A DNA stretch of 34,896 nt. It comes from an uncultured Alphaproteobacteria bacterium (GTDB lineage Bacteria > Pseudomonadota > Alphaproteobacteria > Rs-D84). Numbering within the stretch: the stretch's first letter is position 1; every line of letters starts with the position of its first letter. A program made the position numbers and the translations under genes. The notes under the pieces are model-generated. The model saw only the letters and a program-made list of their open reading frames with translations. It had not been told where the DNA came from and did no database searches. Shown piece by piece: positions 2,991 through 26,197 of the stretch. Location: the NCBI GenBank assembly GCA_937901165.1, contig CALCGS010000031.1:1-34896 (forward strand), given 5' to 3'.

Positions 2991-3580
2991 AATTTTTTAC
3001 GCCCCCCAAACGCCAAACTTAAAGTGCCATCGTCCAAATAATCCAAATCACCACCCAAAGGTACCCCAGATGCCAATTCAGTAAATGTTATGCCCCTATC
3101 ATCACCAATACACGCAATAACATAATTTGCAGTTGTTTTTCCTTCGATGGTGTTCGGTAGTGCAAATATTATTTCAGATATTTTTTCTGTATCAATACGA
3201 TTTATCAATTCTGATATATTCAAATCATCCGGCGTTATTCCATTTGTACCCGACAAAAGCCCACCAATAATATGATAACGACCACGAAAAACATTTGATT
3301 TTTCTAAAGTCCAAACGTCCGACATATCACGCACAACGCATAATACGCCAATATTGCGCGATTCATCCGAACAAAATTCACACACATCACCGTCAGTCAA
3401 AACACCACATATACCACAAGGATGAATTGTTTGCGATGTTGTAAGCAATGCATTCGCCAATAATTCTGCACGACCTGTTTTATCCTGTAATAATGCAAGA
3501 ACTATTCTGCTGGCCGCACGAGAACCGACACGTGGCAATTTTGCAAATAACTTTACTAATTTTTCTATCTGTGAATTCAT
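2987..3580 (-). CDS. recR: recombination protein RecR
   Basis: N-terminal helix-hairpin-helix LPRVGSRAASRI, a Cys4 zinc finger (CGICGVL...CEFC) and a Toprim-like C-terminal part. Length of 197 aa is typical. Confidence 0.92.
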   Translation of the reverse strand: MNSQIEKLVKLFAKLPRVGSRAASRIVLALLQDKTGRAELLANALLTTSQTIHPCGICGVLTDGDVCEFCSDESRNIGVLCVVRDMSDVWTLEKSNVFRGRYHIIGGLLSGTNGITPDDLNISELINRIDTEKISEIIFALPNTIEGKTTANYVIACIGDDRGITFTELASGVPLGGDLDYLDDGTLSLAFGGRKKL

Positions 3581-6220: not shown

Positions 6221-6469
6221 ATGAAAAACGCAAATCATGGTGCTATTGACAACCAACAATTAATTTCTATTATTGAACGTATTGAAAAATTAAACGAAGA
6301 AACCGCTAATATTGCTGCCGATATCAAGGAAATTTATAGCGAAGCAAAATCTGCCGGATATGACCCAAAGTATATCAGACAAATGATACGTTTAAGAAAG
6401 TTGGACCCAGATGAATTAGACGAAGCGGACGAATTAACAAAAATGTATCGTGATGCTTTGGGTATATAA
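6221..6469 (+). CDS. gapR: DUF2312/UPF0335 family protein (GapR-like nucleoid-associated protein)
   Basis: 82 aa with LISIIERIEKLNEE...IKEIYSEAKSAGYDPKYIRQMIRLRK, matching the DUF2312 pattern. A strong AAGGGGA RBS lies upstream. Confidence 0.8.
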   Translation: MKNANHGAIDNQQLISIIERIEKLNEETANIAADIKEIYSEAKSAGYDPKYIRQMIRLRKLDPDELDEADELTKMYRDALGI

Positions 6470-6474
6470 TTTTT

Positions 6475-6789
6475 ATGAAAAAATTCACAAAAAACATTGA
6501 AGATTTTAACTGCGCCAATTGTGGCGCAGTTGTTCATGGCAACGGTTATACAAACCATTGTCCAAAATGCCTATGGTCAAAGCATGTTGATAATAATCCT
6601 GGGGATAGGATGTCCGAATGTTGTGGTATGATGAAGCCAATATCCGCCATGCCTGATGGTGATAGGTATATAATTATTCACAAATGTACAAAATGTGGCA
6701 AAACAATTCGCCAACATACCAGCCCAGACGATAACATTGATGAAATTATAAAAATAAGTGCAGATTCTGGCTTTATTTTTGGGAAATAA
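6475..6789 (+). CDS. RNHCP domain-containing protein
   Basis: FNCANCG...TNHCPKCLWSKHVD...GDR...CCGMMKP matches the RNHCP-domain signature. It starts 5 nt after the gapR stop. Confidence 0.75.
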   Translation: MKKFTKNIEDFNCANCGAVVHGNGYTNHCPKCLWSKHVDNNPGDRMSECCGMMKPISAMPDGDRYIIIHKCTKCGKTIRQHTSPDDNIDEIIKISADSGFIFGK

Positions 6790-6806
6790 ATTTCTATACT
6801 TTTTAT

Positions 6807-8768
6807 ATGATAAAGTTCCTTAAACAGCAATTTGATAATTTTTTATTGTGGTTGCCTTTGTTGTTTTCTTTTGGTGCAACGATTTATTTTGTATTACCAA
6901 CAGAACCCACAATACCATATCCTATTTTACTGTCTTGTATTTTTGGAATTCTGTTATTTATCAAACACGTAAATATATTTTTCAAAGTGCCAATCGCGGT
7001 TTTATTTGGATTTGTTTATACAATCGCTTTTACACACTGTGTTCAAACCCCAATGCTTAAACACGATTTACGTGACATAAATTTTACAGGAAATATCAAA
7101 AATATCGAATTTCATAATGATAAAGTTAGATATATTGTGGAAATTGCCCCTGACGAACTGGATATGGATACCACAAAACCAGTAAAAGTAAGAATTAGTG
7201 GCGATGCTAAATCTGAAATAAATGTTGGTGATACTGTAAATTTCAATGCCGCACTGTTTCAAATATCTGGCCCAGAAACAGTTGGTGCTTTTGATTTTGC
7301 ACGTTGGGCTTACTTTCACAAAATAACCGCTACAGGTTATGTCAAAGATTACAATATTGTAAATGAATCAACGAATACATCTTTTGAAAAAATACGCGAA
7401 AATGTGCATAACAAATCAAAATCTTTTTTAACAGATGGTTTAGTGTTGGGGTATAAAAACAGCCTGAGCCCGCAAGACCAACAAATTTGGACAACCGCAG
7501 GTGTTGGACACGTTTGGTCAATCAGCGGATTTCATATGACGTTGGTTGGCGGATGGCTGATTATATTATTTTATTCTATTTTTAGATGCATTCCATACAT
7601 AACAAAACGAATACCTGCAAAAATTCCAGCAATGATTTGTGCGTGGATTGGATTACTGGTTTATGTTTTATTATCAGGTATTGGTGTTGCAACAATCAGA
7701 GCATTTATTATGACGAGTTTAGTGTTTGTCGCACTATTTATCGGCAGAAAATCTTTTTCTTTACGGAATATTTCTATTGCTTTTCTTGTGCTATTTTTAT
7801 TTAACCCAAGTTTTATTTCACAGGCAGGTTTCCAATTATCTTTTGCGGCTATTTTTGGAATTGTTTGGTTTTGGAACAATAAAAATAATATGGGAAAAAG
7901 TTTCTTAAATACAATTTACAAAACTTTGATGACAACTTTGATTGCGACATTATTTACAATGCCATTTATAATTTCTAATTTTAATAGTTTGCCAATTTAT
8001 GGGATTGTTGGAAATTTAATTTTATTACCTATATTTTCAATTCTTATTATGCCGATTGTTATTATCGGAACTATTTTTGCGTTATTATTTAATCAAAACT
8101 TTTTACTAAATATTGCAGAATATGTTTACAATTTTTCTTTTGATATTGCTAAATTTATTTCTGGGTTGCCGTCCGCAAATTTAACATTTCCATACATAAA
8201 TAATAGTGCAATATTTTTCTTTGTTTTTGCTTTGGCATGTTTGATTTTTATTATCCCAATCAAAGATTCTAAATCTTTTATTTATAAAAACGCAAATTTA
8301 TACGCTTGTATTATATTTTCTGTTATTGGAATCGGTATAATTGTAGCAACAGACAAACCTGTATTTTATGCAACACCAGACCACGAATTAGTTGGTTTCG
8401 TTTTTAACGGAAAATTAGAATTTAATAAAGCAAAGGCATCTAATCATTATTTTGCTTTTGATGCTTTTAGAAAATTAAACAATGAAAAACCCAGCGAAAC
8501 AAATATTCGACATAAATGTAAAAAAGGTGTTTGTATTTATAAATCTGATAATTTTACTTTGGCGTATATTCAAAAATTTGTTCCATTACAAAATAATATT
8601 GTTGAATTATGTAATGACGATAATATAAATTACATAGTTTCTTATTTTGATATTCAATCTGAAAAATGCAACCACAAAATATTACGCGATGGATTTGTAA
8701 TCTATAAAAATAAACATATTAAATACGTACAAAAAAATCGAATTTGGTTTAGTAATCAGCCCGAATAA
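6807..8768 (+). CDS. comEC: ComEC/Rec2 family competence (DNA internalisation) membrane protein
   Basis: 653-aa polytopic membrane protein with an N-terminal OB-like insert (DUF4131-like). The central region AGVGHVWSISGFHMTLV is typical of the Competence domain. No C-terminal metallo-beta-lactamase part is seen. Confidence 0.8.
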   Translation: MIKFLKQQFDNFLLWLPLLFSFGATIYFVLPTEPTIPYPILLSCIFGILLFIKHVNIFFKVPIAVLFGFVYTIAFTHCVQTPMLKHDLRDINFTGNIKNIEFHNDKVRYIVEIAPDELDMDTTKPVKVRISGDAKSEINVGDTVNFNAALFQISGPETVGAFDFARWAYFHKITATGYVKDYNIVNESTNTSFEKIRENVHNKSKSFLTDGLVLGYKNSLSPQDQQIWTTAGVGHVWSISGFHMTLVGGWLIILFYSIFRCIPYITKRIPAKIPAMICAWIGLLVYVLLSGIGVATIRAFIMTSLVFVALFIGRKSFSLRNISIAFLVLFLFNPSFISQAGFQLSFAAIFGIVWFWNNKNNMGKSFLNTIYKTLMTTLIATLFTMPFIISNFNSLPIYGIVGNLILLPIFSILIMPIVIIGTIFALLFNQNFLLNIAEYVYNFSFDIAKFISGLPSANLTFPYINNSAIFFFVFALACLIFIIPIKDSKSFIYKNANLYACIIFSVIGIGIIVATDKPVFYATPDHELVGFVFNGKLEFNKAKASNHYFAFDAFRKLNNEKPSETNIRHKCKKGVCIYKSDNFTLAYIQKFVPLQNNIVELCNDDNINYIVSYFDIQSEKCNHKILRDGFVIYKNKHIKYVQKNRIWFSNQPE

Positions 8769-9685: not shown

Positions 9686-10510
9686 TTATTCCCCATATTT
9701 TATTTCAGCACCATGCAAACCATTTACAAAACTTTTCCAGTCCATAACCGTTTTGCCAGCAGGCTGTATTTTTATTATTTCTAAACCACTATTTTTTATA
9801 GCAGTTTCAACTATTTTGACGTCAACGCCGTTTATTTTGGTTCGTCCACAACCCAATGCACGCACTAAATTATGAATTTCATATGGCGTTTTTGTCCAAT
9901 CTATTATTTCATCAGAACCTGTAAATTTTCGTGTATATGTTGGTTCACCAATTTGCGGTTCTGGGAAAAATTTATCATCATCAGCAAAAAATTCTTGTAA
10001 TATTTCTATGGATGTTTGTGATACTTTCTTTTCCAATGTTTTGTTTGTATCATTTTCGTCTATGTTTATATTTTTACGCAAATAAACACCACCCGCATCC
10101 ATTTCACTTACAATCTGCATCAAACATACATCCATATCCGTATCACCATTTAATAATGCCGTTCTTATTGGTGACGCACCACGATATTTTGGTAAAGAAC
10201 TGGGGTGAATGTTTATAAATTTTCCAGTTGATAATATATTATCAGATAATAAAACACCATACGACATTATAAATACATAATCGGCATCACCAATATTAAA
10301 TTCACGTATAGTCGTGTGTACAGAAATACCATTTTCAACCGCCCAATCATGAACAGGTGAACGTGTTAATATGTGTTTACGTCCAACAGGTTTTGGCGCA
10401 CGTGTGAATACAGATATTATATCGTGATTCTTGGATAAAAAATCAAAAACAGGAACAACAAAATCATTTGTTCCCATTAAAATCAATTTTTTACGTGTTT
10501 GCTGTGGCAT
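9686..10510 (-). CDS. fmt: methionyl-tRNA formyltransferase
   Basis: NIHPSSLPKYRGASPI motif. I prefer the start at Met26 of the track ORF (ATG 10510..10508, MPQQTRKKLILMGT). This abuts the def stop at 10512-10514 and removes a hydrophobic extension that would overlap def. Confidence 0.9.
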   Translation of the reverse strand: MPQQTRKKLILMGTNDFVVPVFDFLSKNHDIISVFTRAPKPVGRKHILTRSPVHDWAVENGISVHTTIREFNIGDADYVFIMSYGVLLSDNILSTGKFINIHPSSLPKYRGASPIRTALLNGDTDMDVCLMQIVSEMDAGGVYLRKNINIDENDTNKTLEKKVSQTSIEILQEFFADDDKFFPEPQIGEPTYTRKFTGSDEIIDWTKTPYEIHNLVRALGCGRTKINGVDVKIVETAIKNSGLEIIKIQPAGKTVMDWKSFVNGLHGAEIKYGE

Positions 10511-10511
10511 T

Positions 10512-11018
10512 TTACTTACGTCTCCGTACTTTACGCATAACCATTTCGCGACGCACGCCAGACAAATAATCAACAAACAAAACACCGTTCAAATGGTCTG
10601 TTTCATGTTGTACAATACGCGCAGGAACCCCATGCATTTCAGCCTGTAATTTTTTACCATTTTCATCTGTCCATGACACAATCACAGATTCAGGACGACT
10701 TACACGTGCATATACCGGTAAATTATCGGAACCAAGAACGGACAAACAACCTTCTTCTAAATTTACCTTGTTTTCACTGAATGAAATTATTTCAGGGTTT
10801 ATCATTTTGAAAATTTGTTCAGTGTCAGGGTCCATCATTACCAAAAAACGTTTTAATATCCCAACCTGAGGTGCTGCAAGTCCAACCCCATTTTGCACAC
10901 GCATCATTTGAACCATTTCGTCCATTATAGACAGTAATTCTGTATCTATATCTTCAACAGGTTCACATTTACTGCGTAATGCCAAATCACCACATAGTTT
11001 CATTTCCAATTTATTCAT
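10512..11018 (-). CDS. def: peptide deformylase
   Basis: GLAAPQVG, EGCLS and HETDHLNG motifs. The start is uncertain (ATGs at 11024, 11018 and 11003). I chose 11018 because an AGGGG run lies 6 nt upstream. Confidence 0.9.
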   Translation of the reverse strand: MNKLEMKLCGDLALRSKCEPVEDIDTELLSIMDEMVQMMRVQNGVGLAAPQVGILKRFLVMMDPDTEQIFKMINPEIISFSENKVNLEEGCLSVLGSDNLPVYARVSRPESVIVSWTDENGKKLQAEMHGVPARIVQHETDHLNGVLFVDYLSGVRREMVMRKVRRRK

Positions 11019-18689: not shown

Positions 18690-19412
18690 ATGTTCAATAT
18701 AAGACATTTTTTTACTAATTTGTTATGTGGTATTATTCCAGGTGCCAGGAATCGTAATACAGTTCGGGCTTTTTGCAATACTAACAACGTTTATAACTTG
18801 CATTTTATACGCAAAAACACGGGATTCAAACATATAAGGATTAAACATTTTGTTGGATATCGTGGGTTGGCACTTACCACATGCGTAAACAATAAATACG
18901 CTTATAAATTTCAAATTAGAAAAATGAATAAAGAATCTTTTGAACGTGAAAAGATTATAACCGATGAATTTAGGAAAATTTCACATCTGTATATACCCAA
19001 AATGGAAATTTTTCCATACGCTGGCAAATTTGTACGCAGATACGAATATATAAACGGCACAACTATTAGAAAAATAAAACCAAAAATTGTAAAAGAAATG
19101 ACCCCCGATTGGGCGCATAGTATTGCAAAATTTTTATTTGAAATTGGAATGTACGACCCGAAATCGTTATACAAATATAAAACCGACAAAAATGCAAAAC
19201 CTGGATACATGTACGGATGGTACCATGGGGATATTTACGATAATTTTATGATAGATAAAAAAACAAATAAAATATTGGCTGTGTTTGATTGGGAAGATGT
19301 GCGTTTTGACGATTTTAGCAATATTTTTCAATCAAAATACCCAGACCAAAACGAATTTATGCAAGCCGTACGCATTGAATACGATAAAATTTATAAAAAA
19401 TCTTGCAAATAA
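18690..19412 (+). CDS. phosphotransferase-enzyme-family (APH/choline-kinase-like) small kinase
   Basis: Catalytic-loop-like HGDIYDNFMID followed by VFDWEDV (metal-binding-like). An N-lobe-like NNKYAYKFQIRK is present. An alternative shorter start exists at ATG 18924. Confidence 0.55.
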   Translation: MFNIRHFFTNLLCGIIPGARNRNTVRAFCNTNNVYNLHFIRKNTGFKHIRIKHFVGYRGLALTTCVNNKYAYKFQIRKMNKESFEREKIITDEFRKISHLYIPKMEIFPYAGKFVRRYEYINGTTIRKIKPKIVKEMTPDWAHSIAKFLFEIGMYDPKSLYKYKTDKNAKPGYMYGWYHGDIYDNFMIDKKTNKILAVFDWEDVRFDDFSNIFQSKYPDQNEFMQAVRIEYDKIYKKSCK

Positions 19413-19449: not shown

Positions 19450-19523
19450 TGGGGTGTCGTCTAATGGTAGGACAAGAGATTTTGGTTCTCTTTATCATGG
19501 TTCGAATCCGTGCGCCCCAACCA
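19450..19523 (+). tRNA. tRNA-Gln (anticodon UUG)
   Basis: TGGGGTGTCGTCTAATGGTAGGACAAGAGATTTTGGTTCTCTTTATCATGGTTCGAATCCGTGCGCCCCAACCA. The acceptor stem is TGGGGTG/CGCCCCA, the anticodon stem AGAGA/TCTCT with loop TTTTGGT, and the T-loop GGTTCGAATCC. CCA is encoded. Confidence 0.9.
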
Positions 19524-19534
19524 AAATTAAACAA

Positions 19535-19556
19535 TACCCCCAACGGGGTATTTTTT
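19535..19556 (+). terminator. rho-independent terminator of tRNA-Gln
   Basis: TACCCC-CAAC-GGGGTA hairpin followed by TTTTTT. Confidence 0.7.
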
Positions 19557-19563
19557 AATTTTC

Positions 19564-19620
19564 ATGGCGCACGGATACGCCAGAGCGAAGCGCATGGCGA
19601 ATACGCAGATGAACAATTAG
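19564..19620 (+). pseudogene. remnant of the 3' end of a GIY-YIG nuclease gene
   Basis: The 19-codon frame MAHGYARAKRMANTQMNN* shares G-Y-A-x-A-K-R (GGATACGC... at DNA level) with the C-terminus GSGYAFAKRHFWK* of the intact GIY-YIG gene at 20323-20568. About 55 nt downstream it is followed by the same ~105-bp repeat that directly follows the intact gene. The match is short, so this is tentative. Confidence 0.4.
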
Positions 19621-19676
19621 CAACCGCGCAAAAACGGATATTTTTAATTAGAGTTTTTGCCCTGCGGTTGGTTATT

Positions 19677-19780
19677 GTTTATCAAGGTCTCGTACGCATT
19701 CCAGAGAGTAAAACAAATACCCTTTCATCAGTTCGAAAGTCAAATTTCGATTTTTTATCTTTTTAAACACACTTTCGAAC
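19677..19780 (+). repeat. direct repeat A1 (~104 bp) ending in copy 1 of the 50-bp inverted-arm element (arms 19731-19740 / 19771-19780)
   Basis: GTTTATCAAGGTCTCGTACGCATTCCAGAGAGTAAAACAAATAC...GTTCGAAAGT-30 nt-ACTTTCGAAC aligns along its length with 20568-20672. Confidence 0.85.
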
Positions 19781-19801
19781 CAACTTTAAAATAAAAAATT
19801 A

Positions 19802-19829
19802 TTGTATTTACAAATAATTATATTATAAT
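19802..19829 (+). promoter_or_regulatory. candidate sigma70-type promoter for the 111-aa ORF
   Basis: TTGTAT-16 nt-TATAAT lies 22 nt downstream of the 50-bp element. An AAGGA RBS sits 6 nt before the ATG at 19851. Confidence 0.35.
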
Positions 19830-19850
19830 GCGCCCAACAAAGGAAAAATT

Positions 19851-20186
19851 ATGACAATTACAATAATAACAATATGTGGTGACCCGTTTAAGTGGGAATC
19901 AGAAATCACATATCTTGCTGAACGAATGACTTGTTCTGGGAAATATTGTGTTTTAACACCAGTTATTCCGTTTATAAAACATCCACCTGTGGGGGGTATG
20001 TTTACAGCCTCAGAAATAGGTCGTTTAGTTGATGCGCAACGTATAAAGATAAATTTATCGTCGGCAATATTAGTTATGGATACAAACGGTGTCGTTGATG
20101 AAGTAACTCAATGTGAAGTAGCCTATGCGAAAATGAAGAAAAAGCAAATAATGTATTACAGCCAGGAAATACATAATTGGAGATAA
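19851..20186 (+). CDS. hypothetical protein (111 aa); weak resemblance to small Rossmann-like nucleoside 2-deoxyribosyltransferase-like (DUF4406-type) proteins
   Basis: Good RBS. The N-terminal beta-strand-like ITIITICGD and the C-terminal SSAILVMD...DEVTQCEVAYAKMKKKQIMY pattern underlie the weak resemblance. The family assignment is a guess from pattern only. Confidence 0.6.
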   Translation: MTITIITICGDPFKWESEITYLAERMTCSGKYCVLTPVIPFIKHPPVGGMFTASEIGRLVDAQRIKINLSSAILVMDTNGVVDEVTQCEVAYAKMKKKQIMYYSQEIHNWR

Positions 20187-20215
20187 ACTCGCGTTTTGCC
20201 AGCACCCCACAACCA
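20186..20215 (+). repeat. tRNA-3'-end-like motif copy X1 (direct)
   Basis: AACTCGCGTTTTGCCAGCACCCCACAACCA begins on the last base of the ORF111 stop codon. The core matches revcomp of X3 at 18 of 22 positions, and its left part is identical to X2 (AACTCGCGTTT). Confidence 0.7.
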
Positions 20216-20310
20216 CACTTCGCGCCTGCGACGCTTCGTGTGGCGGGCCACACGGACGGAGCAGTTATCGCAAAGTAGTGTCCACCGTAGCCTTGGCGTA
20301 GGCGGACAGG
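20186..20310 (+). ncRNA. candidate structured GC-rich leader / ncRNA upstream of the GIY-YIG gene
   Basis: A strongly GC-enriched stretch of ~125 nt in an AT-rich genome. GTGTGG (20238-20243) can pair either with CCACAC at 20213-20218 or with CCACAC at 20248-20253. A further stem GTCCACC (20280-20286)/GGCGGAC (20301-20307) abuts the AGGAA RBS at 20308-20312. Confidence 0.3.
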
Positions 20311-20322
20311 AATAAAATTTAA

Positions 20323-20568
20323 ATGTTTTATGTATATCTTATAAAAAGCATTTCCCACCCTGAACAAAAATACATCGGTCAAACAGATGATTTGAAACAA
20401 CGGCTAAAGCAACATAATGCAGGATATTCAATACACACAGCAAAATATAAACCATGGGAATTGGTAAATTACTTTGCTTTTACCTCAAAAGATGCAGCAT
20501 TAAAATTTGAACAATATCTTAAAACAGGTTCCGGATACGCATTCGCAAAAAGACATTTTTGGAAATAG
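20323..20568 (+). CDS. small GIY-YIG (URI-domain only, COG2827/UPF0213-like) nuclease family protein
   Basis: 81 aa. YVYLIKS...KYIGQT forms the GIY...YIG strands, followed by LKQRLKQHN and a C-terminal GSGYAFAKRHFW, typical of the stand-alone small GIY-YIG family. Confidence 0.85.
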   Translation: MFYVYLIKSISHPEQKYIGQTDDLKQRLKQHNAGYSIHTAKYKPWELVNYFAFTSKDAALKFEQYLKTGSGYAFAKRHFWK

Positions 20569-20672
20569 TTTATCAAGGCCTCGTGCGCATTCCAGAGAGT
20601 AAAACAAATACTCTTCCGCAAAGTTCGAAAGTCAATTTTTCTATTTTTAACTACTATCTGGCACTTTCGAAC
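20568..20672 (+). repeat. direct repeat A2 (~105 bp) ending in copy 2 of the 50-bp inverted-arm element (arms 20623-20632 / 20663-20672)
   Basis: It starts on the last base of the GIY-YIG stop codon and aligns with 19677-19780. Confidence 0.85.
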
Positions 20673-20770
20673 TTTTTAATACATTGCAAATAGTAGATAT
20701 TGTTTTCGAACTGATAAAAACACTACATTCACAATAAAAACATGCTCTGAATATATTTATCGTTCATTAT

Positions 20771-20792
20771 GGTTGTGGTGTGTGGGCGAAAC
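20771..20792 (-). repeat. tRNA-3'-end-like motif copy X3 (inverted); left arm of a perfect 22-bp inverted repeat
   Basis: GGTTGTGGTGTGTGGGCGAAAC is the exact reverse complement of 21467-21488. Confidence 0.9.
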
Positions 20793-20812
20793 ATTAACAG
20801 TATAAAAATCTT

Positions 20813-21361
20813 TTATCTGGAATTATTTAAAGCAGATTGTGTATTACGAATGCGTTCTTGCAACGCTTTATATTTGAGACGTCCGTTTATTCTCCCATCA
20901 AACCCTTTTCTATGTTCATGGGTGTGCAGGCAAAACCAATCTTGTCGCAAATGAGAAGAAATCATATAAGAAAACTTTTTCAGCACGCGTTCCACAATCG
21001 TTTTATATGTATCAGAAGGCAATAACGTAATACCATTTGTAGCCCTATCACCACCATAATATTTCCATTCTAAAAAAACATCTATTTCATATGGATACGG
21101 TGGCAAACCATTATTGTAAAGTTTAGGATTATAATATTTTTCCCAATATGCACTTAATGCAGAATCTTCCTGTATTCTTTCGTGCAACCAATCTTCGTGG
21201 GATTTCCTGAAATCTGGTGATTCAAGAGTCACAATAGTTTTGTGTAAGGAATTGGAGTTCCAATGTAAAGTAAAAAAATCTGGAGTATTTACTTCTTGTA
21301 CATAATATAACAATTCATAAATGTTATGATAGAATAATTCCCAATCCGGACGTTCTGACAT
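20813..21361 (-). CDS. hypothetical protein (182 aa), His/Trp/Tyr-rich, no family recognised
   Basis: Uninterrupted ORF that fills the segment between the 22-bp inverted repeats. It contains HEDWLHE and HTHEH motifs. Confidence 0.65.
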   Translation of the reverse strand: MSERPDWELFYHNIYELLYYVQEVNTPDFFTLHWNSNSLHKTIVTLESPDFRKSHEDWLHERIQEDSALSAYWEKYYNPKLYNNGLPPYPYEIDVFLEWKYYGGDRATNGITLLPSDTYKTIVERVLKKFSYMISSHLRQDWFCLHTHEHRKGFDGRINGRLKYKALQERIRNTQSALNNSR

Positions 21362-21459
21362 AATATATACCTATATAATTGCTCTCACACTCCCTATTAT
21401 CTAAAGGAAAGTATATATATAAGTTCGATAAAAATCAACATATTATTAACATTGATAAC

Positions 21460-21497
21460 AACTCGCGTTTCGCCCACACACCACAACCAAAATTAAA
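21460..21497 (+). repeat. tRNA-3'-end-like motif copy X2 (direct); right arm of the perfect 22-bp inverted repeat
   Basis: AACTCGCGTTTCGCCCACACACCACAACCAAAATTAAA shares AACCAAAATTAAA with the tRNA-Gln 3' end and flank (19518-19531). Confidence 0.85.
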
Positions 21498-21500
21498 AAA

Positions 21501-21521
21501 ATGCCCGTTGGGGCATTTTTT
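21501..21521 (+). terminator. orphan terminator-like hairpin following X2 (mimics the tRNA-Gln terminator)
   Basis: ATGCCC-GTTG-GGGCAT followed by TTTTTT. It has the same architecture and spacing as 19535-19556, but no plus-strand gene ends here. Confidence 0.5.
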
Positions 21522-21545
21522 ATTTGAAACACAAGGATTTGGCGA

Positions 21546-21595
21546 GTTCGAAAGTCAATTTTTTAATTTTTGTATTCTTATCAGCACTTTCGAAC
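21546..21595. repeat. copy 3 of the 50-bp inverted-arm element
   Basis: GTTCGAAAGT-30 nt-ACTTTCGAAC. A TATAAT hexamer lies about 25 nt downstream. Confidence 0.85.
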
Positions 21596-21669
21596 TACGG
21601 AATTTTGTTTCTGCTGTAAAAGGCTATAATCTGCCATCATTTTTTCCACTTATCTCTTGCCCGATTTCC

Positions 21670-21718
21670 AACAACTCGGCTCGCGAATTGCACAGACAGC
21701 ACAAACAAAAATTAAAAA
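21670..21718 (+). repeat. tRNA-3'-end-like motif copy X4 (direct, degenerate)
   Basis: AACAACTCGGCTCGCGAATTGCACAGACAGCACAAACAAAAATTAAAAA aligns with X2 when a few indels are allowed. Confidence 0.45.
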
Positions 21719-21811
21719 CACCTTTCATAAAGTTCTTTTGTGTGTTTTTTTCACATGCTTTAAAAAGACTTGAAAAAGGTGTATAATCAGTCGACAAAAT
21801 GTGTGAATCAA

Positions 21812-22435
21812 TTATTTCTGTCTTGCAAATAATTTACGTAAAGCGACTGGAATTTTATTATTGTTATTCGGCCATATTTCTTTAATTTTTAAATTCACCA
21901 CAACATCCTGTTCTGGTTTCAACACATCATATCCAGGATAAGTAATCGTATACTCGTTTGAAGCCAATGGATTAACTATCAAACCAATCTTTTTTGCATT
22001 ATATACCCATGGAATAATAACAGCATCAGAACTACAATCATCCATTTTTGGGGCTTTAATACCATTTTGTTCAAAATATGCTATTGCATCTGATTTATAC
22101 GGAACCTTTGTGCATACATATAACACCACTTGACGAGTTGTTTCTTTACCGACAACACCTTTTTTGTATTTAAATGAATCATTTGTATGGTTTAAACTTT
22201 CAAACAAATGTTTTTTCTGTTCTTGTTTTGTCGCTAAAACAGGATCAATTATATAATCACACCGATAAATAGTCAATTTTGTTCCATCTTGATTCAAGGA
22301 TTTATTTTTTGCCAACCACTTTACAAACTCAGCTGCATTTTTAATATCGGATGGAACTAGATAATCTAATGTACCATCATTAATTTTATACTTTGTTTCA
22401 ATAAGATAGTTTTTGCCATTATTATCATATTTCAT
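21812..22435 (-). CDS. hypothetical protein (207 aa from the ATG), distant paralog of the next gene
   Basis: I prefer ATG 22435..22433, which has an AAGGA RBS 7 nt upstream, over the TTG at 22468 in the track. The C-terminal motif LKPEQDVVVNLKIKEIWPNNNNKIPVALRKLF is shared with the 190-aa ORF. Confidence 0.65.
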   Translation of the reverse strand: MKYDNNGKNYLIETKYKINDGTLDYLVPSDIKNAAEFVKWLAKNKSLNQDGTKLTIYRCDYIIDPVLATKQEQKKHLFESLNHTNDSFKYKKGVVGKETTRQVVLYVCTKVPYKSDAIAYFEQNGIKAPKMDDCSSDAVIIPWVYNAKKIGLIVNPLASNEYTITYPGYDVLKPEQDVVVNLKIKEIWPNNNNKIPVALRKLFARQK

Positions 22436-22595
22436 TTTTGCATCCTTATTTTTTATCCGTCCATACAAACAATATAGTATTAAAAAAAAAATAGCAACAG
22501 ATTTATATAAACATTATAATAATTATAAAGCGACGCATCTTTGTGGTGTAATTTATCAGACTCTGATAGTGTTGCACAGATTTGAAAATAATTGC

Positions 22596-22625
22596 AAAAA
22601 GAAAACCCTGTAATTCAGGGTTTTT
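22596..22625 (-). terminator. rho-independent terminator after the 190-aa ORF
   Basis: AAAACCCTG / CAGGGTTTT stem with a 5-nt loop, flanked by T-rich and A-rich runs on both sides. It lies 10 nt from the stop at 22635. Confidence 0.6.
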
Positions 22626-22634
22626 ACATTATTG

Positions 22635-23207
22635 CTATCTTAATATACAATTTTTCCCCTTTAACAACAGATTTGTTAAACCCTTTGGTATCGTACCAAA
22701 ATCAGCATTTTTAGGGTATATTTGACATATATTTGTATCAACAACAATATCTTTTTCATCTAGTGGTCTAAGGTTAAAATAGATTTCATCAGGGTACCAT
22801 TTACCAGATGATAAAATGAACACAGGTGTATTTGTATCGTAAATTTTAGAATAAGGATAAATAAACTTTTTAACATCTTGTGGGTATATTAATTTATTAG
22901 TTGTTGACATAATGAATTTAAATTTTTGTGGATCATAAAAATCGTGTGCTTGTTTTCCACCTTCTTCATAGATGCATATTTTTCTGTAACATTCAAAGCT
23001 GTATGTTTTTTTATCGCGTTGATAAAGATGTGGAATTTTATTACAAAAAATCTTTATTTCTTCTATTTGATTTTCGAGTCCTTTACTTTCTATAGTTTGG
23101 TTTTCCCCAAAACAAGTATCACTTTCTCTATATCTAATATGACCATCATTAGTGTTATGGGTATCAAATGTGCCAATCTTAAATTCAACATCGCTTTTAA
23201 ATATCAT
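22635..23207 (-). CDS. hypothetical protein (190 aa), distant paralog of the preceding gene
   Basis: The C-terminal LRPLDEKDIVVDTNICQIYPKNADFGTIPKGLTNLL aligns with the C-terminus of the 207-aa ORF. Confidence 0.65.
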   Translation of the reverse strand: MIFKSDVEFKIGTFDTHNTNDGHIRYRESDTCFGENQTIESKGLENQIEEIKIFCNKIPHLYQRDKKTYSFECYRKICIYEEGGKQAHDFYDPQKFKFIMSTTNKLIYPQDVKKFIYPYSKIYDTNTPVFILSSGKWYPDEIYFNLRPLDEKDIVVDTNICQIYPKNADFGTIPKGLTNLLLKGKNCILR

Positions 23208-23455
23208 TATTCAATCCTTTGCTAGTCTTTTCCTGAATTTATCACAATTTATTGCAAAAGCAAGTTAGTTTTCTGGTGTTTAATTTTGAACCAAGCAATG
23301 TAATATTCAAATATTTGATTGATTACTACCAATATTTAGTTCTATGAAAAAGATACGTTATTTATACTTGCACATAAATAAAATAACATATAAGACAAAA
23401 AAATACGATTTGAATCCACATGAAATTTATTGTCAATGTTTAATGGTTTCTGTAT

Positions 23456-23476
23456 GGTTCTGGGTGTGTCAGAAAC
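23456..23476 (-). repeat. tRNA-3'-end-like motif copy X6 (inverted, degenerate)
   Basis: GGTTCTGGGTGTGTCAGAAAC compared with X3 GGTTGTGGTGTGTGGGCGAAAC matches at about 16-17 of 22 positions with one indel. Both are preceded by AT. Confidence 0.45.
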
Positions 23477-23638
23477 GAAGAATAACCCAACGAACAAGCA
23501 CAGAAAATATTTCATATTTTGTTTTTCAGAATTTTTTCTTAAATCGGTATTTACATTTTGCGTTTATTTTATAAAAAACCCTGGTAAAAAATTTACTTTT
23601 TATTAAGTTTTTGTTTTAATTTGCAATACCCCAACAGA

Positions 23639-23688
23639 ATTCGAAAGTCAATTTTTCTATTTTTAACTTCTATCTTGCACTTTCGAAC
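23639..23688. repeat. copy 4 of the 50-bp inverted-arm element
   Basis: ATTCGAAAGT-30 nt-ACTTTCGAAC matches copy 2 at 47 of 50 positions. It is preceded by CAATACCCCAAC, which resembles the left half of the tRNA-Gln terminator (CAATACCCCCAAC). Confidence 0.85.
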
Positions 23689-23752
23689 CACTTATAAATG
23701 TATTGCAAGAATCTAATCTTTGTGATAATGATGCAATGAAGAGGTTTTGTGT

Positions 23753-24430
23753 ATGACTGGTATTGAATATATAAAAAACGCTGTTTCTGAATTACTTAAA
23801 AATAATTCTAATGGGCATGATGATAAACACGTATTTCGTGTTTATAATACGGCTTTGAATTTTTGTAACGATATTCCGTCTGCAAATCGTGATTTAGTTG
23901 CCACAACAGCCCTATTGCATGATTGTGATGATTACAAATTATTTGGTGAAGAATCTGAACGTTTATTAATAAACACAAGAAAAATACTAGCCAACACTGA
24001 TTTTAGCAACGATTTTTGTGAAAAATGTATAAACATTATCAAAACAATCGGTTACAGCAAAAGACTACAAGGTATTACACCAGATTGCATAGAAGGTAAA
24101 ATTGTTTCTGATGCAGATATGGCTGATGCATCCGGATTTATTGGTATAATACGTTGTATTGAATATCGCCTTGAAAGAAAAGATCCTTTCTTTGATCCAA
24201 ATTGGTTGCCATGTGAAACAGATGCAAAAACATACAGACAACCTATTTGTTGTCCGGTTGTAAATCATTTATTTGACAAAGGTTTACATTTGCGCGACAT
24301 GGCGTTAACAGAACCTGGTCGTAAATATATAAATGACAAACATCAAATATTAATAAACTTTCTTAAAACTTTTTTTGATGAAGTTGATGCACCACGAATA
24401 TGGTATGATTTATTAAAAAAATACGAATAA
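23753..24430 (+). CDS. HD-domain metal-dependent phosphohydrolase
   Basis: H...KH..RV (HDDKHVFRVYN) and LLHDCDD motifs, with a later SDADMADA. I prefer ATG 23753, which has a GAAGAGG RBS 8 nt upstream, over the TTG at 23747. Confidence 0.8.
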   Translation: MTGIEYIKNAVSELLKNNSNGHDDKHVFRVYNTALNFCNDIPSANRDLVATTALLHDCDDYKLFGEESERLLINTRKILANTDFSNDFCEKCINIIKTIGYSKRLQGITPDCIEGKIVSDADMADASGFIGIIRCIEYRLERKDPFFDPNWLPCETDAKTYRQPICCPVVNHLFDKGLHLRDMALTEPGRKYINDKHQILINFLKTFFDEVDAPRIWYDLLKKYE

Positions 24431-24461
24431 ATAAACCTGCGTTATATTAATAGTATTGTTG

Positions 24462-24512
24462 GCCGTTGCACCACAACTAAATTTTTAACCGGCGGTTTGC
24501 CGGTTGTGTTTT
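24462..24512 (+). repeat. tRNA-3'-end-like motif copy X8 (direct) plus hairpin and T-run; candidate right boundary of the island
   Basis: GCCGTTGCACCACAACTAAATTTTT resembles CCGTGCGCCCCAACCAAAATT of the tRNA. It is followed by an AACCGGC-GGTTT-GCCGGTT hairpin and GTGTTTT. The segment after the HD stop, ATAAACCTGCGTT, matches the left part of X1 and X2. Confidence 0.6.
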
Positions 24513-24514
24513 CA

Positions 24515-24949
24515 TTATTTTCTAGTTTTATCGACCTGTTGTTCACGCCTATGGTAAATATTATTAACAATTTGTATTGCAAGGCTATTCCTGTTGTGGT
24601 GATGAGAAAAACTTGGCGCAGTTTCATACAAAAAACGACCCTGAGCGTCTGATAATTTTAATATATCAGCGGCCGTAATATACAAAACTTCTTCCTCTTT
24701 ATTATCCAAATGAGATATATGTTTTTTTAAATTAATACCATTTATAGCATAAATTTCACGAACAAAATCTATATTACTAATTTTCATTAAATTATCATAC
24801 ATTCCCGGTTTAACGTAGATATACTTACATTCTGCACCATTTGCAACAGTGCTATTAACCGGTTCACTATTAACAATCAAATAACGTAAAAGATTCTTAC
24901 TTTCTTGCATTTTTTGCAATTCTTCGGTTGCTTTACCAAAATTATCCAT
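24515..24949 (-). CDS. hypothetical protein (144 aa)
   Basis: Uninterrupted ORF with GGAGTGAAAAT upstream of its ATG. It is convergent on the hairpin at 24487-24505. No family was recognised. Confidence 0.55.
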   Translation of the reverse strand: MDNFGKATEELQKMQESKNLLRYLIVNSEPVNSTVANGAECKYIYVKPGMYDNLMKISNIDFVREIYAINGINLKKHISHLDNKEEEVLYITAADILKLSDAQGRFLYETAPSFSHHHNRNSLAIQIVNNIYHRREQQVDKTRK

Positions 24950-25077
24950 ATTTTCACTCCTTGTTATATACTTGTTATTTAATTAAATTATACAATAAAT
25001 ATCATGTTTTGTCTAATTTTTTTACAAAAACACATTTTTGTTAATTCAATATTTTTAATTTCTTGCTTTACAAAAAG

Positions 25078-25105
25078 TTGACATTTAAATTTTTTCGACT
25101 ATAAT
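25078..25105 (+). promoter_or_regulatory. near-consensus sigma70 promoter of the lipoprotein gene
   Basis: TTGACA-16 nt-TATAAT. An AAGGA RBS lies 7 nt before the ATG at 25130. Confidence 0.55.
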
Positions 25106-25129
25106 TATTTATAGTTCAAGGATGTTAAA

Positions 25130-26170
25130 ATGAAAAAAAACAAAAACTTGGTCAACTTAAAAAAATATTCTTTTGCTATTTTGGTGGCTGCTGTGTTTTT
25201 TGCAACTTGTGCAAAAATCGAAAAAAACAATAAAATTATAGATAAAGATATAAACACAAAAAAAGAAATACATATAAAAGAACCTATAAAAAAAGCATCA
25301 ACAAGAAACAAATCAAAACAAAATAAAACATATACTGTTGATGCAAATGAAAATTCTCCAATGGATTTTTTACAAAAAAACGACAGTTTATATCAAAATG
25401 CTTATAATAAATATTCTGAACGAATTGGTAAAGATTTTCAATTATCCAACTTCTTTTCACAAAAAGAAATTGACGATTTAAAAAGTATGCTTGCAACAAA
25501 TTCATATAACAATTTAACTTTCTTGGATTCTTGTTCTTATGCCAGAATTATGGCCAACCAAGGTTCTTTGAATGATTTAGCGACTTTTTGGGAATATTTA
25601 GATTATGATTTTATTCAGCAAAACTTTAAAAATAAAATTTCTCCATATTATCAAAAAATAGATTTTTCCGATTCTATTGATATTGATAGTTTGGCGGATA
25701 TGATGTGGGGCGAAAGCGCATATTACGAAGCATTACAATACGATTCTAAAAACACACAAAATGCTTTCTTAAAAGAATTTGATTTAATTGAAAATGCTTG
25801 GGGTGCACGTTATGTCGAAAAACAAATCGACACTTTGAATAAACAACGTGATGAACATTTACAACAATTTAATAACGATTCTGTGCAACAAAAAATCATC
25901 ATCGACAACTATAAACAAAAACAAGATACTCTGGTTCAAAAATTTATTACCAACAATGGTGAATTAAACGCACCTAATTTTAGTATTCCAGAATTTCAAA
26001 ATATAAAAGCAGAATATGTAAAAAATAGTCAGGCAAATAACGATTTGCTTAAACAATATAATTATGAAGATTCTGTCATACATTCCAAAGATTCTATCAA
26101 CAAATGTTTGCCAACTGATTCCGTCAACAAATATTTACCAATAGATTCAATGGTTCAAAAACAAAGATAA
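25130..26170 (+). CDS. putative lipoprotein, Asn/Gln/Lys-rich, unknown function
   Basis: Signal peptide with a lipobox-like FFATC (MKKNKNLVNLKKYSFAILVAAVFFATCAK). It has C-terminal 9-aa tandem repeats. Confidence 0.7.
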   Translation: MKKNKNLVNLKKYSFAILVAAVFFATCAKIEKNNKIIDKDINTKKEIHIKEPIKKASTRNKSKQNKTYTVDANENSPMDFLQKNDSLYQNAYNKYSERIGKDFQLSNFFSQKEIDDLKSMLATNSYNNLTFLDSCSYARIMANQGSLNDLATFWEYLDYDFIQQNFKNKISPYYQKIDFSDSIDIDSLADMMWGESAYYEALQYDSKNTQNAFLKEFDLIENAWGARYVEKQIDTLNKQRDEHLQQFNNDSVQQKIIIDNYKQKQDTLVQKFITNNGELNAPNFSIPEFQNIKAEYVKNSQANNDLLKQYNYEDSVIHSKDSINKCLPTDSVNKYLPIDSMVQKQR

Positions 26171-26173
26171 AAA

Positions 26174-26197
26174 AGTGCCGTAATCGGCACTTTTTTT
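26174..26197. terminator. bidirectional rho-independent terminator between the lipoprotein gene and the MerR gene
   Basis: AGTGCCG-TAAT-CGGCACT, flanked by AAAAA on one side and TTTTTTT on the other. Confidence 0.7.

Follow-up and report, generated by a model that had tools for sequence, protein, structure and literature searches.

The array at the tRNA-Gln gene

The window analysed here (the whole stretch of 34,896 nucleotides from an uncultured gut alphaproteobacterium of the Candidatus Enterousia group) is AT-rich, at ~35% GC, and carries a tRNA-Gln (TTG) gene, the 3' end of which anchors a polar series of gene cassettes that extends from 19524 to ~26195. A preliminary description, made from the sequence alone, had recognised a cassette array at this tRNA gene. 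The repeats were found to be confined to the island, downstream of tRNA-Gln. The accretion of cassettes at the tRNA gene shows integron-like behaviour, differs between strains and is more regular and larger than had been described. Housekeeping genes were identified on either side, as expected from that description: pyruvate kinase, comEC, truA, fmt, def, rmuC, the acrB-OEP-MarR efflux genes and tRNA-Glu to the left, and MerR, gyrA, an acyl-ACP thioesterase and leuS to the right. The Rfam scan of the window matched two tRNAs only.

Each cassette is predicted to be a self-contained transcription unit, composed of a terminator, a linker, a motif termed D1, its own promoter, one open reading frame (ORF) and a motif termed D2. 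For the array as a whole, the role of the first D2 site is taken by the 3' end of tRNA-Gln itself (...CGCCCCAACCA). The genes were located as follows.

19450-19523, strand +: tRNA-Gln (TTG), by ARAGORN; Rfam score 57.7 bits
19851-20186, strand +: ORF111, with a promoter-like TTGTAT-N17-TATAAT upstream, at ~19800-19828
20323-20568, strand +: GIY-YIG nuclease domain protein of 81 aa (Pfam PF01541, E = 2.7e-16)
20813-21361, strand -: ORF182, which travels with both flanking D2 sites
21812-23207, strand -: ORF218 and ORF190, with a terminator between them at 22602-22624
23747-24430, strand +: HD-domain phosphohydrolase (Pfam HD, E = 1.7e-6)
24515-26195, both strands: ORF144 (-) and ORF346 (+), the remainder of the variable island up to the conserved MerR-gyrA flank

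Anatomy of the boundary modules

The actual repeat unit is much larger than the motif first described. Over ~135 nt it runs in the order D2, AAATTAA, terminator hairpin, linker (ATTTGAAACACAAGGATTTGGCGAG) and D1. The complete module at 21460-21595 gave an nhmmer E-value of 1.8e-37 and was 82-88% identical to modules in four related loci (L014, L006, L015 and L017; L numbers denote loci from other contigs). D2 ends in ...CAACCA as the tRNA does, its last bases copying the tRNA-Gln 3' end (...CC[A/C]CAACCA), and a terminator follows; the suggestion that the boundaries mimic a tRNA 3' end with its terminator was supported. The long form of D2, AACTCGCGTTTCGCC..., begins at the stop codon. A profile of the unit also covered the tRNA end and its flank in L009, L012 and L016. 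The three sites at which a hairpin and T-run had been pointed out all scored as terminators, two of them on both strands. The features of the boundaries are listed below, with the designations X1 to X8 retained for the motif copies first proposed.

19533-19552, both strands: bidirectional terminator hairpin after the tRNA, scored on both strands
19557-19667, strand +: GC-rich 'remnant' segment, 100% identical in L005 and 85-86% identical in L020, L023 and L025
19668-19724, strand +: D4a, a degenerate tRNA-Gln 3' half without the T-loop; an 89% repeat with 20559-20615
19727-19780, strand +: D1a, with a loop type that travels with ORF111
20186-20215, strand +: D2a (X1), overlapping the ORF111 stop codon; 31.4 bits; identical in L049, where a different module comes next
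20213-20310, strand +: structured leader of the GIY-YIG gene, with four helices, starting at the terminal CA of CCA
20559-20615, strand +: D4b, a pseudo-tRNA half closing the GIY element; repeat of D4a
20619-20672, strand +: D1b, by repeat and D1 pattern matches
20673-20762, strand -: Sp, a degenerate inverted terminator, linker and TTCGAA box, by nhmmer
20763-20792, strand -: D2b (X3), an inverted D2; 38.9 bits
21460-21595, strand +: complete boundary module, with D2a (X2, 21460-21489), terminator (21496-21521), linker and D1c (21542-21595)
21660-21712, strand +: D2 variant (X4) with no hairpin; BLAST matches to L009 and L001; 6 bits
23440-23478, strand -: decayed Sp end and D2b (X6), by eye only; matrix score not significant
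23556-23688, strand +: decayed D2a, terminator and linker (~23556-23634), then an intact D1d (23635-23688), by unit alignment and D1 matches
24457-24506, strand +: weak D2a (X8, 9.5 bits) and a terminator hairpin (24486-24506)

The D2 copies were evaluated with the pattern GTTTYGCCNNCACNCCACAACC and with a weight matrix built solely from copies in other genomes and compared with 200 random windows. Three exact matches to the pattern were present in 34.9 kb (20193 and 21467 on the + strand, 20771 on the - strand), against 0.02 expected. The same three strong copies scored 31-39 bits with the matrix, whereas the random-window maximum was 19.7 bits. Judged by score alone, X8 (9.5 bits), the tRNA end (7.0 bits) and X4 (6.0 bits) lie within chance. 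At least six copies had been claimed initially, to be compared with random sequence: three stand well clear of it, X4 and X8 are supported by their context only, X6 is weakly supported, and TTGTGGTGT at 22541 is noise; neither X6 nor the 22541 match ranks on the matrix. X4 is nevertheless a genuine member of a separate D2 variant subfamily, its sequence TCGCGAATTGCACAGAYAGCRCAAC having BLAST matches in L009 (83-89%) and L001. X8 is supported by its position, since it lies after the HD stop codon with a hairpin next to it, and a strong copy follows the HD homologue of L006. X6 is at best a decayed D2 copy. The agreement between motif and gene orientation held for ORF111 (0 nt from the stop codon), ORF182 (20 nt) and the HD gene, but the copy at 21460 closes no + strand gene, and it is true only in part that every cassette ends with a motif copy.

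The D1 family, which had been missed, was found at 19727, 20619, 21542 and 23635, all four on the + strand, with no other copy in the window. D1 is 50 bp long and has 11-bp inverted arms (AGTTCGAAAGT and ACTTTCGAACT) around an AT-rich 26-28 nt. Across 37 distinct copies the length was fixed at 50 bp and the arms were near-invariant, apart from a compensatory double change in L009 and a small number of changes on one side only. The almost invariant arms and fixed spacing therefore point to recognition by a protein more than to a simple hairpin. D1 is always oriented as the tRNA is, and the D1a loop type also precedes ORF111 in L004 and L049. None of D1, D2 and the GIY leader had a match in Rfam scans.

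Directly upstream of D1 at two of these boundaries (19668 and 20559) sits D4, which for D4a was aligned to the tRNA by eye as TTTATCAAGGTCTCGTACGCATTCCA against TTTATCATGGTTCGAATCCGTGCGCCCCAACCA. On the other side of D1b, the minus strand from 20796 to 20704 corresponded to positions 5-95 of the unit model (nhmmer, E = 1.3e-18). Because the stretch from D1b to the inverted D2 (20673-20792) matches the unit profile in reverse, the boundary often takes the form of a large imperfect palindrome with D1 at its centre. Many genes lie between one inverted and one direct D2, and the D2 sites therefore frequently alternate in orientation. ORF182 is flanked by perfect 22-bp inverted D2 copies, and 20763-20792 and 21467-21496 form a 30-nt inverted repeat of 93% complementarity. 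D2 is not itself dyad-symmetric.

Recurrence and variation in related loci

The D1 pattern was scanned against one genome per species, and further loci were obtained through a metagenome scan and protein-based look-ups. The D1 scan gave 16 true loci, all from Candidatus Enterousia or other alphaproteobacterial metagenome-assembled genomes (MAGs) of gut origin, with horse, goat, yak and buffalo among the hosts. Most lay directly 3' of tRNA-Gln (TTG or CTG), and the genome scan found no more than two loci per genome. The same grammar of modules was seen beside both tRNA-Gln genes in more than 25 loci of Ca. Enterousia and related MAGs, and the cargo differed from locus to locus. It begins with tRNA-Gln or a D2 ending in CAACCA; next comes the GIY leader or, in its place, terminator, linker and D1, and then a promoter-bearing gene, D2 and the next module. 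In six loci that share synteny with the window on the left side (L005, L010, L012, L014, L016 and L026), the genes after the tRNA were unrelated, as they were in L040, which is syntenic on both flanks. The modules were 82-98% identical between genomes whose core acrB and OEP genes are 68-71% identical, and several D2 copies were identical over 23 nt across species.

Variation was also observed within the species. An ORF182 homologue was 99% identical, and the contigs carrying it were 97-99% identical to the window and showed three arrangements. L048 (GCA_046881925.1) and L051 are without window positions 19761-20558, which hold ORF111, the D2 copy X1 (D2x1), the leader and the GIY-YIG gene. 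They keep a single hybrid D4-D1, with its left part like the first window copy, its right part like the second and a linker of a third type. L049, seen in two samples, has the order D2b, ORF182, D2, terminator, linker, D1, ORF111, D2x1, terminator, linker, D1, an ORF111 paralogue and other genes. This order places ORF111 after ORF182, with ORF218, ORF190 and the HD gene replaced. The check set beforehand, for presence/absence polymorphism in the tRNA-Gln 3' flank, was thus positive, ORF111 and the GIY-YIG gene being absent from L048/L051 and ORF111 lying elsewhere in L049. ORF218 and ORF190 are present in L048 and absent from L049. The paralogue cassette of L049 (reverse strand, 1428-1730) encodes 100 aa with 38% identity to ORF111 (E = 5e-23) and directly follows the ORF111 cassette.

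Most junctions fall exactly after CAACCA. The ORF182 unit (20754-21492) is 82% identical to L022; the homology stops at both CCA ends and the sequence outside differs. The GIY unit starts exactly after the CCA of tRNA-Gln TTG (L011, L026 and L040), of tRNA-Gln CTG (L004, L027 and L034) or of D2x1 in the window. D2x1 is identical in the window and in L049, but leads into the GIY leader in the former and into a terminator in the latter. To the left of the CCA junctions the common sequence is only ~9-11 nt, which is short for RecA-dependent exchange. D2 variants co-segregate with the ORF upstream of them and D1 loop types with the ORF downstream, as would be predicted for hybrid boundaries of the attP type.

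Homologous recombination between modules can clearly produce some of these variants, and as the sole mechanism it is the main rival to site-specific recombination. The modules would then serve as portable homology and as transcriptional insulators, with RecA-dependent events in the cell or after DNA uptake causing cassettes to be exchanged, dropped or duplicated and no dedicated enzyme involved. Modules of 50-135 nt that are 80-98% identical would provide the substrate, and the segment missing from L048/L051 lies between 113-nt direct repeats in the window, the remaining copy being a hybrid. Also in its favour, the left junction of ORF111 in L049 falls inside an alignable linker, recR is among the window genes together with comEC and rmuC, no recombinase is encoded nearby, and L040 varies without modules. 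It does not explain the new combinations of D2 with a following sequence at ~10 nt of common sequence, nor the polarity and the tie to tRNA-Gln genes, nor the 23-nt D2 sequences and D1 arms that are identical across species with ~70% core genes. The L048 linker, in addition, differs from both window copies. As a complete account, homologous recombination is regarded as a serious but doubtful candidate.

The inverted D2 pairs bear on another reading, in which the units are D2-bounded, non-autonomous transposons of 210-260 nt resembling miniature inverted-repeat transposable elements (MITEs), or segments turned by a DNA invertase. Besides the 22-bp copies around ORF182, units bounded by inverted D2 were found in L008, L015 and L017, and a 199-aa serine recombinase of the resolvase/invertase type is encoded in or near arrays in L007 (2688-3287), L002 (2-151) and L027 (14710-15309), with 76% identity between L007 and L027. 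The L027 gene, however, lies between autotransporter and YadA-type adhesin genes, and modules were not detected in its locus. No transposase and no target-site duplications at unit ends were found, and copies were confined to tRNA-Gln arrays at the low number per genome given above. D2 lacks dyad symmetry, and the orientation of ORF182 did not differ between the six contigs with this gene (the window, L022, L048, L049, L050 and L051), so the shufflon reading offered at first found no support. Terminal inverted repeats are present, but the lack of target-site duplications and of dispersed copies led to rejection of a transposon or MITE, and this whole reading is considered very improbable. A resolvase site resembling the Sp/D2b junction was examined as well. 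TTTTATCGTTC is common to the upstream region of the serine recombinase and to that junction, as is the 9-mer TTATCGTTC between the resolvase region and the junction. The 9-mer occurs 12 times in 379 kb and is a weak lead, suggestive and not convincing.

The GIY-YIG gene and its leader are a separate element that sits at tRNA and transfer-messenger RNA (tmRNA) 3' ends in diverse bacteria. Homologues of the protein (189 matches) were found immediately after the 3' ends of tRNA-Gln and tRNA-Ser genes and, at a distance of ~230 nt, beyond that of a tmRNA gene; sites in different lineages include L027 9820-10290, L032 9802-10249 and L036 5420-6246. The leader is a GC-rich stretch of ~95 nt between CCA and the start codon. 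In its fold 96.9% of cells were paired and seven pairs showed compensatory changes; 0 of 500 shuffles equalled the observed values, and slid controls reached only 28-49% paired. Its covariance model also found two copies outside the seed, in L055 and in the tRNA-Ser-linked L032. Leader copies were observed in L004, L011, L017, L023, L026, L027, L032, L034, L040 and L055, those of L017, L023 and L055 without a GIY-YIG gene. In L027 an intact direct repeat of 21 nt that copies the tRNA end (CCGTGTACCCCAACCACACTT) brackets the GIY unit and is the equivalent of D4b.

These observations allow a homing-like process, in which the nuclease would cut sites resembling D2 or the tRNA-Gln end and break repair would copy or swap modules. 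It would be consistent with the placement of the unit, in diverse lineages, precisely at the CCA of tRNA-Gln, tRNA-Ser or D2 and close to tmRNA, with its presence/absence polymorphism, and with the D4 of the CTG locus L004, which is of the TTG type and indicates that the GIY unit moved as a block. The protein, though, is a bare catalytic domain of 81 aa with no added DNA-binding domain, and the arrays of L048, L049 and L052 have cassettes but no intact GIY-YIG gene in the stretch seen. Exchange driven by this nuclease is judged improbable. Two further stretches were seen near the L027 element. A GC-richer, structured-looking non-coding stretch with TTGATGAGGCG lies at 10340-10540, between the GIY element and the next gene. 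At 6246-7684, 2 kb upstream of tRNA-Gln (CTG) in L027-L031, a reverse transcriptase gene (RVT_1, 345 aa) and a 134-aa partner may form a retron-like system. An apparent difference in gene calls between L031 and L027 was discarded, the DNA being identical.

At least three kinds of tRNA-Gln 3' fragment are present: D4 (from the variable loop onwards), the GAATCCGTGCGC piece (L007, L014 and L022) and D2. Tandem accretion at tRNA genes is well known, and both points are compatible with a decayed stack of classical islands or prophages that integrated at tRNA-Gln and later shed their integrases and most other genes. None of more than 30 loci, however, held integrase, phage or integrative and conjugative element (ICE) genes, and there was no similarity to phage or plasmid records. 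The boundaries are conserved and not decaying, they recur with single genes, and the cassette changes are recent, separating contigs that are 97-99% identical. A decayed stack of this kind is judged improbable. A phage or plasmid origin was also unsupported: BLAST found no similarity in phage and plasmid records, the D1 pattern had no match in viral contigs, and a shortened D2 pattern had six matches there, all in GC-rich contigs (45-63% GC) without a flanking module.

The GAATCCGTGCGC piece, an exact tRNA-Gln T-arm/acceptor sequence, closes a GC-rich insertion of ~115 nt between linker and D1 in L007 (3985-4098), L014 (~3060-3168) and L022 (reverse strand, ~3000-3130), and TTCGA may be duplicated at the insertion ends. 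The remnant segment of the window, ~110 nt between the tRNA terminator and D4, has two copies in L023 and is also present in L052. As a GIY pseudogene it was unsupported, with matches of 7-9 nt only.

Much of the cargo is without a recognised family. ORF111, whose homologues occur in five contexts (the window, L004, L049, L052 and L055), had no Pfam, PHROG, NCBIfam or PDB match; its L004 homologue (2544-2871) is split over two reading frames and is therefore probably a pseudogene. For ORF182, ORF218 and ORF190 no protein-family match was obtained and PDB sequence searches were empty, and only 11 protein clusters are known for ORF182. HD homologues were found in L015 and in L006, where the gene is bounded by D2/terminator/D1 modules. 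Cargo of related loci includes SDR, isochorismatase-like, NUDIX, NADAR, glycosyltransferase, HD, PNP_UDP and metallophosphatase genes, and many genes without a known family. No homologues of ORF144 and ORF346 were found in L001-L025; synteny with the window resumes at MerR/gyrA in L007 and L040. The notion of a defence island was dropped, as PADLOC gave nothing except weak GIY matches. Between tRNA-Glu and tRNA-Gln lies ORF240 (18690-19412), with a weak match to APH-like kinases. The two tRNAs are only 106 nt apart in L005, and L017 has two tandem ORF240 paralogues beside a leader copy; on these grounds ORF240 also looks like accessory cargo.

Candidate mechanism and known systems

The reading that we favour, at a probability of roughly 0.45, is that att-flanked cassettes without an integrase accumulate one behind another at the tRNA-Gln 3' end through site-specific recombination, carried out by an enzyme acting in trans. 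Each internal boundary of ~135 nt (D2, core, terminator, linker and D1) would be a reconstituted attP-like site, its left arm derived from the upstream cassette and its right arm from the downstream one. Cassettes lacking an integrase would enter and leave through the short CAACCA core shared with the tRNA, by means of a recombinase that could be a chromosomal enzyme encoded elsewhere or one supplied by a transient helper element. Successive events would place cassettes in tandem, and homologous recombination between the conserved modules would then add deletions and reorderings. The GIY-YIG gene with its leader would be one inserted unit of this kind. The site-specific model fits because of the tRNA anchor, the polarity, the precise CCA junctions over very little shared sequence, the co-segregation of the arms and the strong conservation of the modules; from these we infer both the recombination process and the existence of an enzyme. 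The anatomy, its presence in many genomes, the polymorphism between strains and the junction positions are demonstrated.

Several observations weigh against this reading. L040 varies just as much, although D1/D2 modules are missing there altogether. The ORF111 cassette has no fixed left edge: in L049 it lies in the linker, in L052 immediately behind D1 and in L055 further inward, a pattern more reminiscent of homologous or illegitimate exchange. Neither D2 nor D1 has a dyad-symmetric core of the type typical for tyrosine or small serine recombinase sites, and the inverted D2b/Sp halves are not simply explained by tandem integration. A tyrosine-recombinase motif, sought by regular expression and not by profile search, occurred in no ORF of at least 150 aa in the window and 25 loci. 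For the later-fetched loci, an integrase family was absent from the precomputed Pfam matches of called genes. Pfam analysis of 48 island ORFs gave no integrase and one small serine recombinase among the families listed (the best 25 of 76).

That no recombinase was in sight had been remarked from the start, and it holds for the whole window, where the scanned ORFs matched no recombinase family in Pfam and contained no box II motif. Nor was an integrase detected at an element end in the window or in any locus examined.

A bolder version of the site-specific reading is a hitherto undescribed, integron-like capture system of Ca. Enterousia, with the tRNA-Gln 3' end as its primary site, a composite site of ~135 nt on every cassette and a non-IntI, perhaps non-classical recombinase. 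We consider this version unlikely. The tRNA-linked GIY-YIG nuclease and its leader RNA may take part in cassette capture.

This gut lineage, whose genome is reduced, appears to collect its accessory genes at two tRNA genes, in the form of small cassettes that drive their own expression, and to swap them between strains. If a dedicated enzyme exists, the sites that it acts on would form a new family for site-specific recombination, with a possible use as a compact means of inserting genes at a tRNA. If homologous recombination alone is responsible, they would be conserved non-coding modules that act as portable homology and organise a flexible island.

Compared with integrons and clusters of attC sites lacking an integrase (CALINs), the array is alike in its polar, mostly single-gene cassettes, in co-oriented sites at or next to the stop codon, in content that varies between strains and in that an array may stand without an adjacent integrase. 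It differs in that no IntI gene was found beside it, in that the cassettes have their own promoters and terminators, and in that the primary site is a tRNA 3' end and not attI. Integron attC sites have RYYYAAC...GTTRRRY ends, extrahelical bases and variable length, none of which is seen in D1 or D2. An attC architecture was rejected for D1, in which GTTCGAAAGT...ACTTTCGAAC forms a continuous 11-bp stem within a fixed 50 bp, and the D2-terminator-linker stretch has no long hairpin beyond the terminator. The array is thus not a canonical integron, as had been anticipated. Cury et al. (2016) reportedly found no integrons in Alphaproteobacteria, and we know of no description of integron-type cassette capture in that class.

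Free-standing GIY-YIG homing endonuclease genes, such as T4 segB in a tRNA gene cluster, resemble the GIY unit in that they adjoin conserved RNA genes, show presence/absence polymorphism and move as a block between loci. The unit of the window shares their catalytic domain and has no additional DNA-binding domain. It is further distinguished by a protein of 81 aa, a leader that starts from the tRNA CCA and a pseudo-tRNA half at its flank.

In Acinetobacter plasmids, Xer-dependent dif modules are built on 28-bp imperfect palindromes of the 11-6-11 XerC/XerD type. Small gene modules, short sites of alternating orientation and the lack of a nearby recombinase are common to both systems, whereas the present array lies in the chromosome and has a tRNA gene as its anchor. 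A site of the Xer/dif kind was rejected, since dyad symmetry is absent from D2; the spacing between the D1 arms is 26-28 nt, against 6 nt in the dif consensus.

Tandem accretion at tRNA genes is known for integrase-less, cis-mobilisable elements and for tRNA-linked islands such as those of Prochlorococcus. The array shares with these the tRNA 3' anchor, partial copies of the tRNA end between units, variable cargo and, for integrase-less units, dependence on an enzyme in trans, which for the array is a putative one. Insertion at a tRNA 3' end with direct repeats, which characterises tRNA-targeting elements, was found here in D4, D2, the GAATCCGTGCGC piece and the 21-nt repeat of L027. The array differs in its single-gene units of 0.4-1 kb, in conserved composite boundaries of ~135 nt that include D1, in the doubling of many boundaries into large imperfect palindromes and in that no helper element was seen in any locus.

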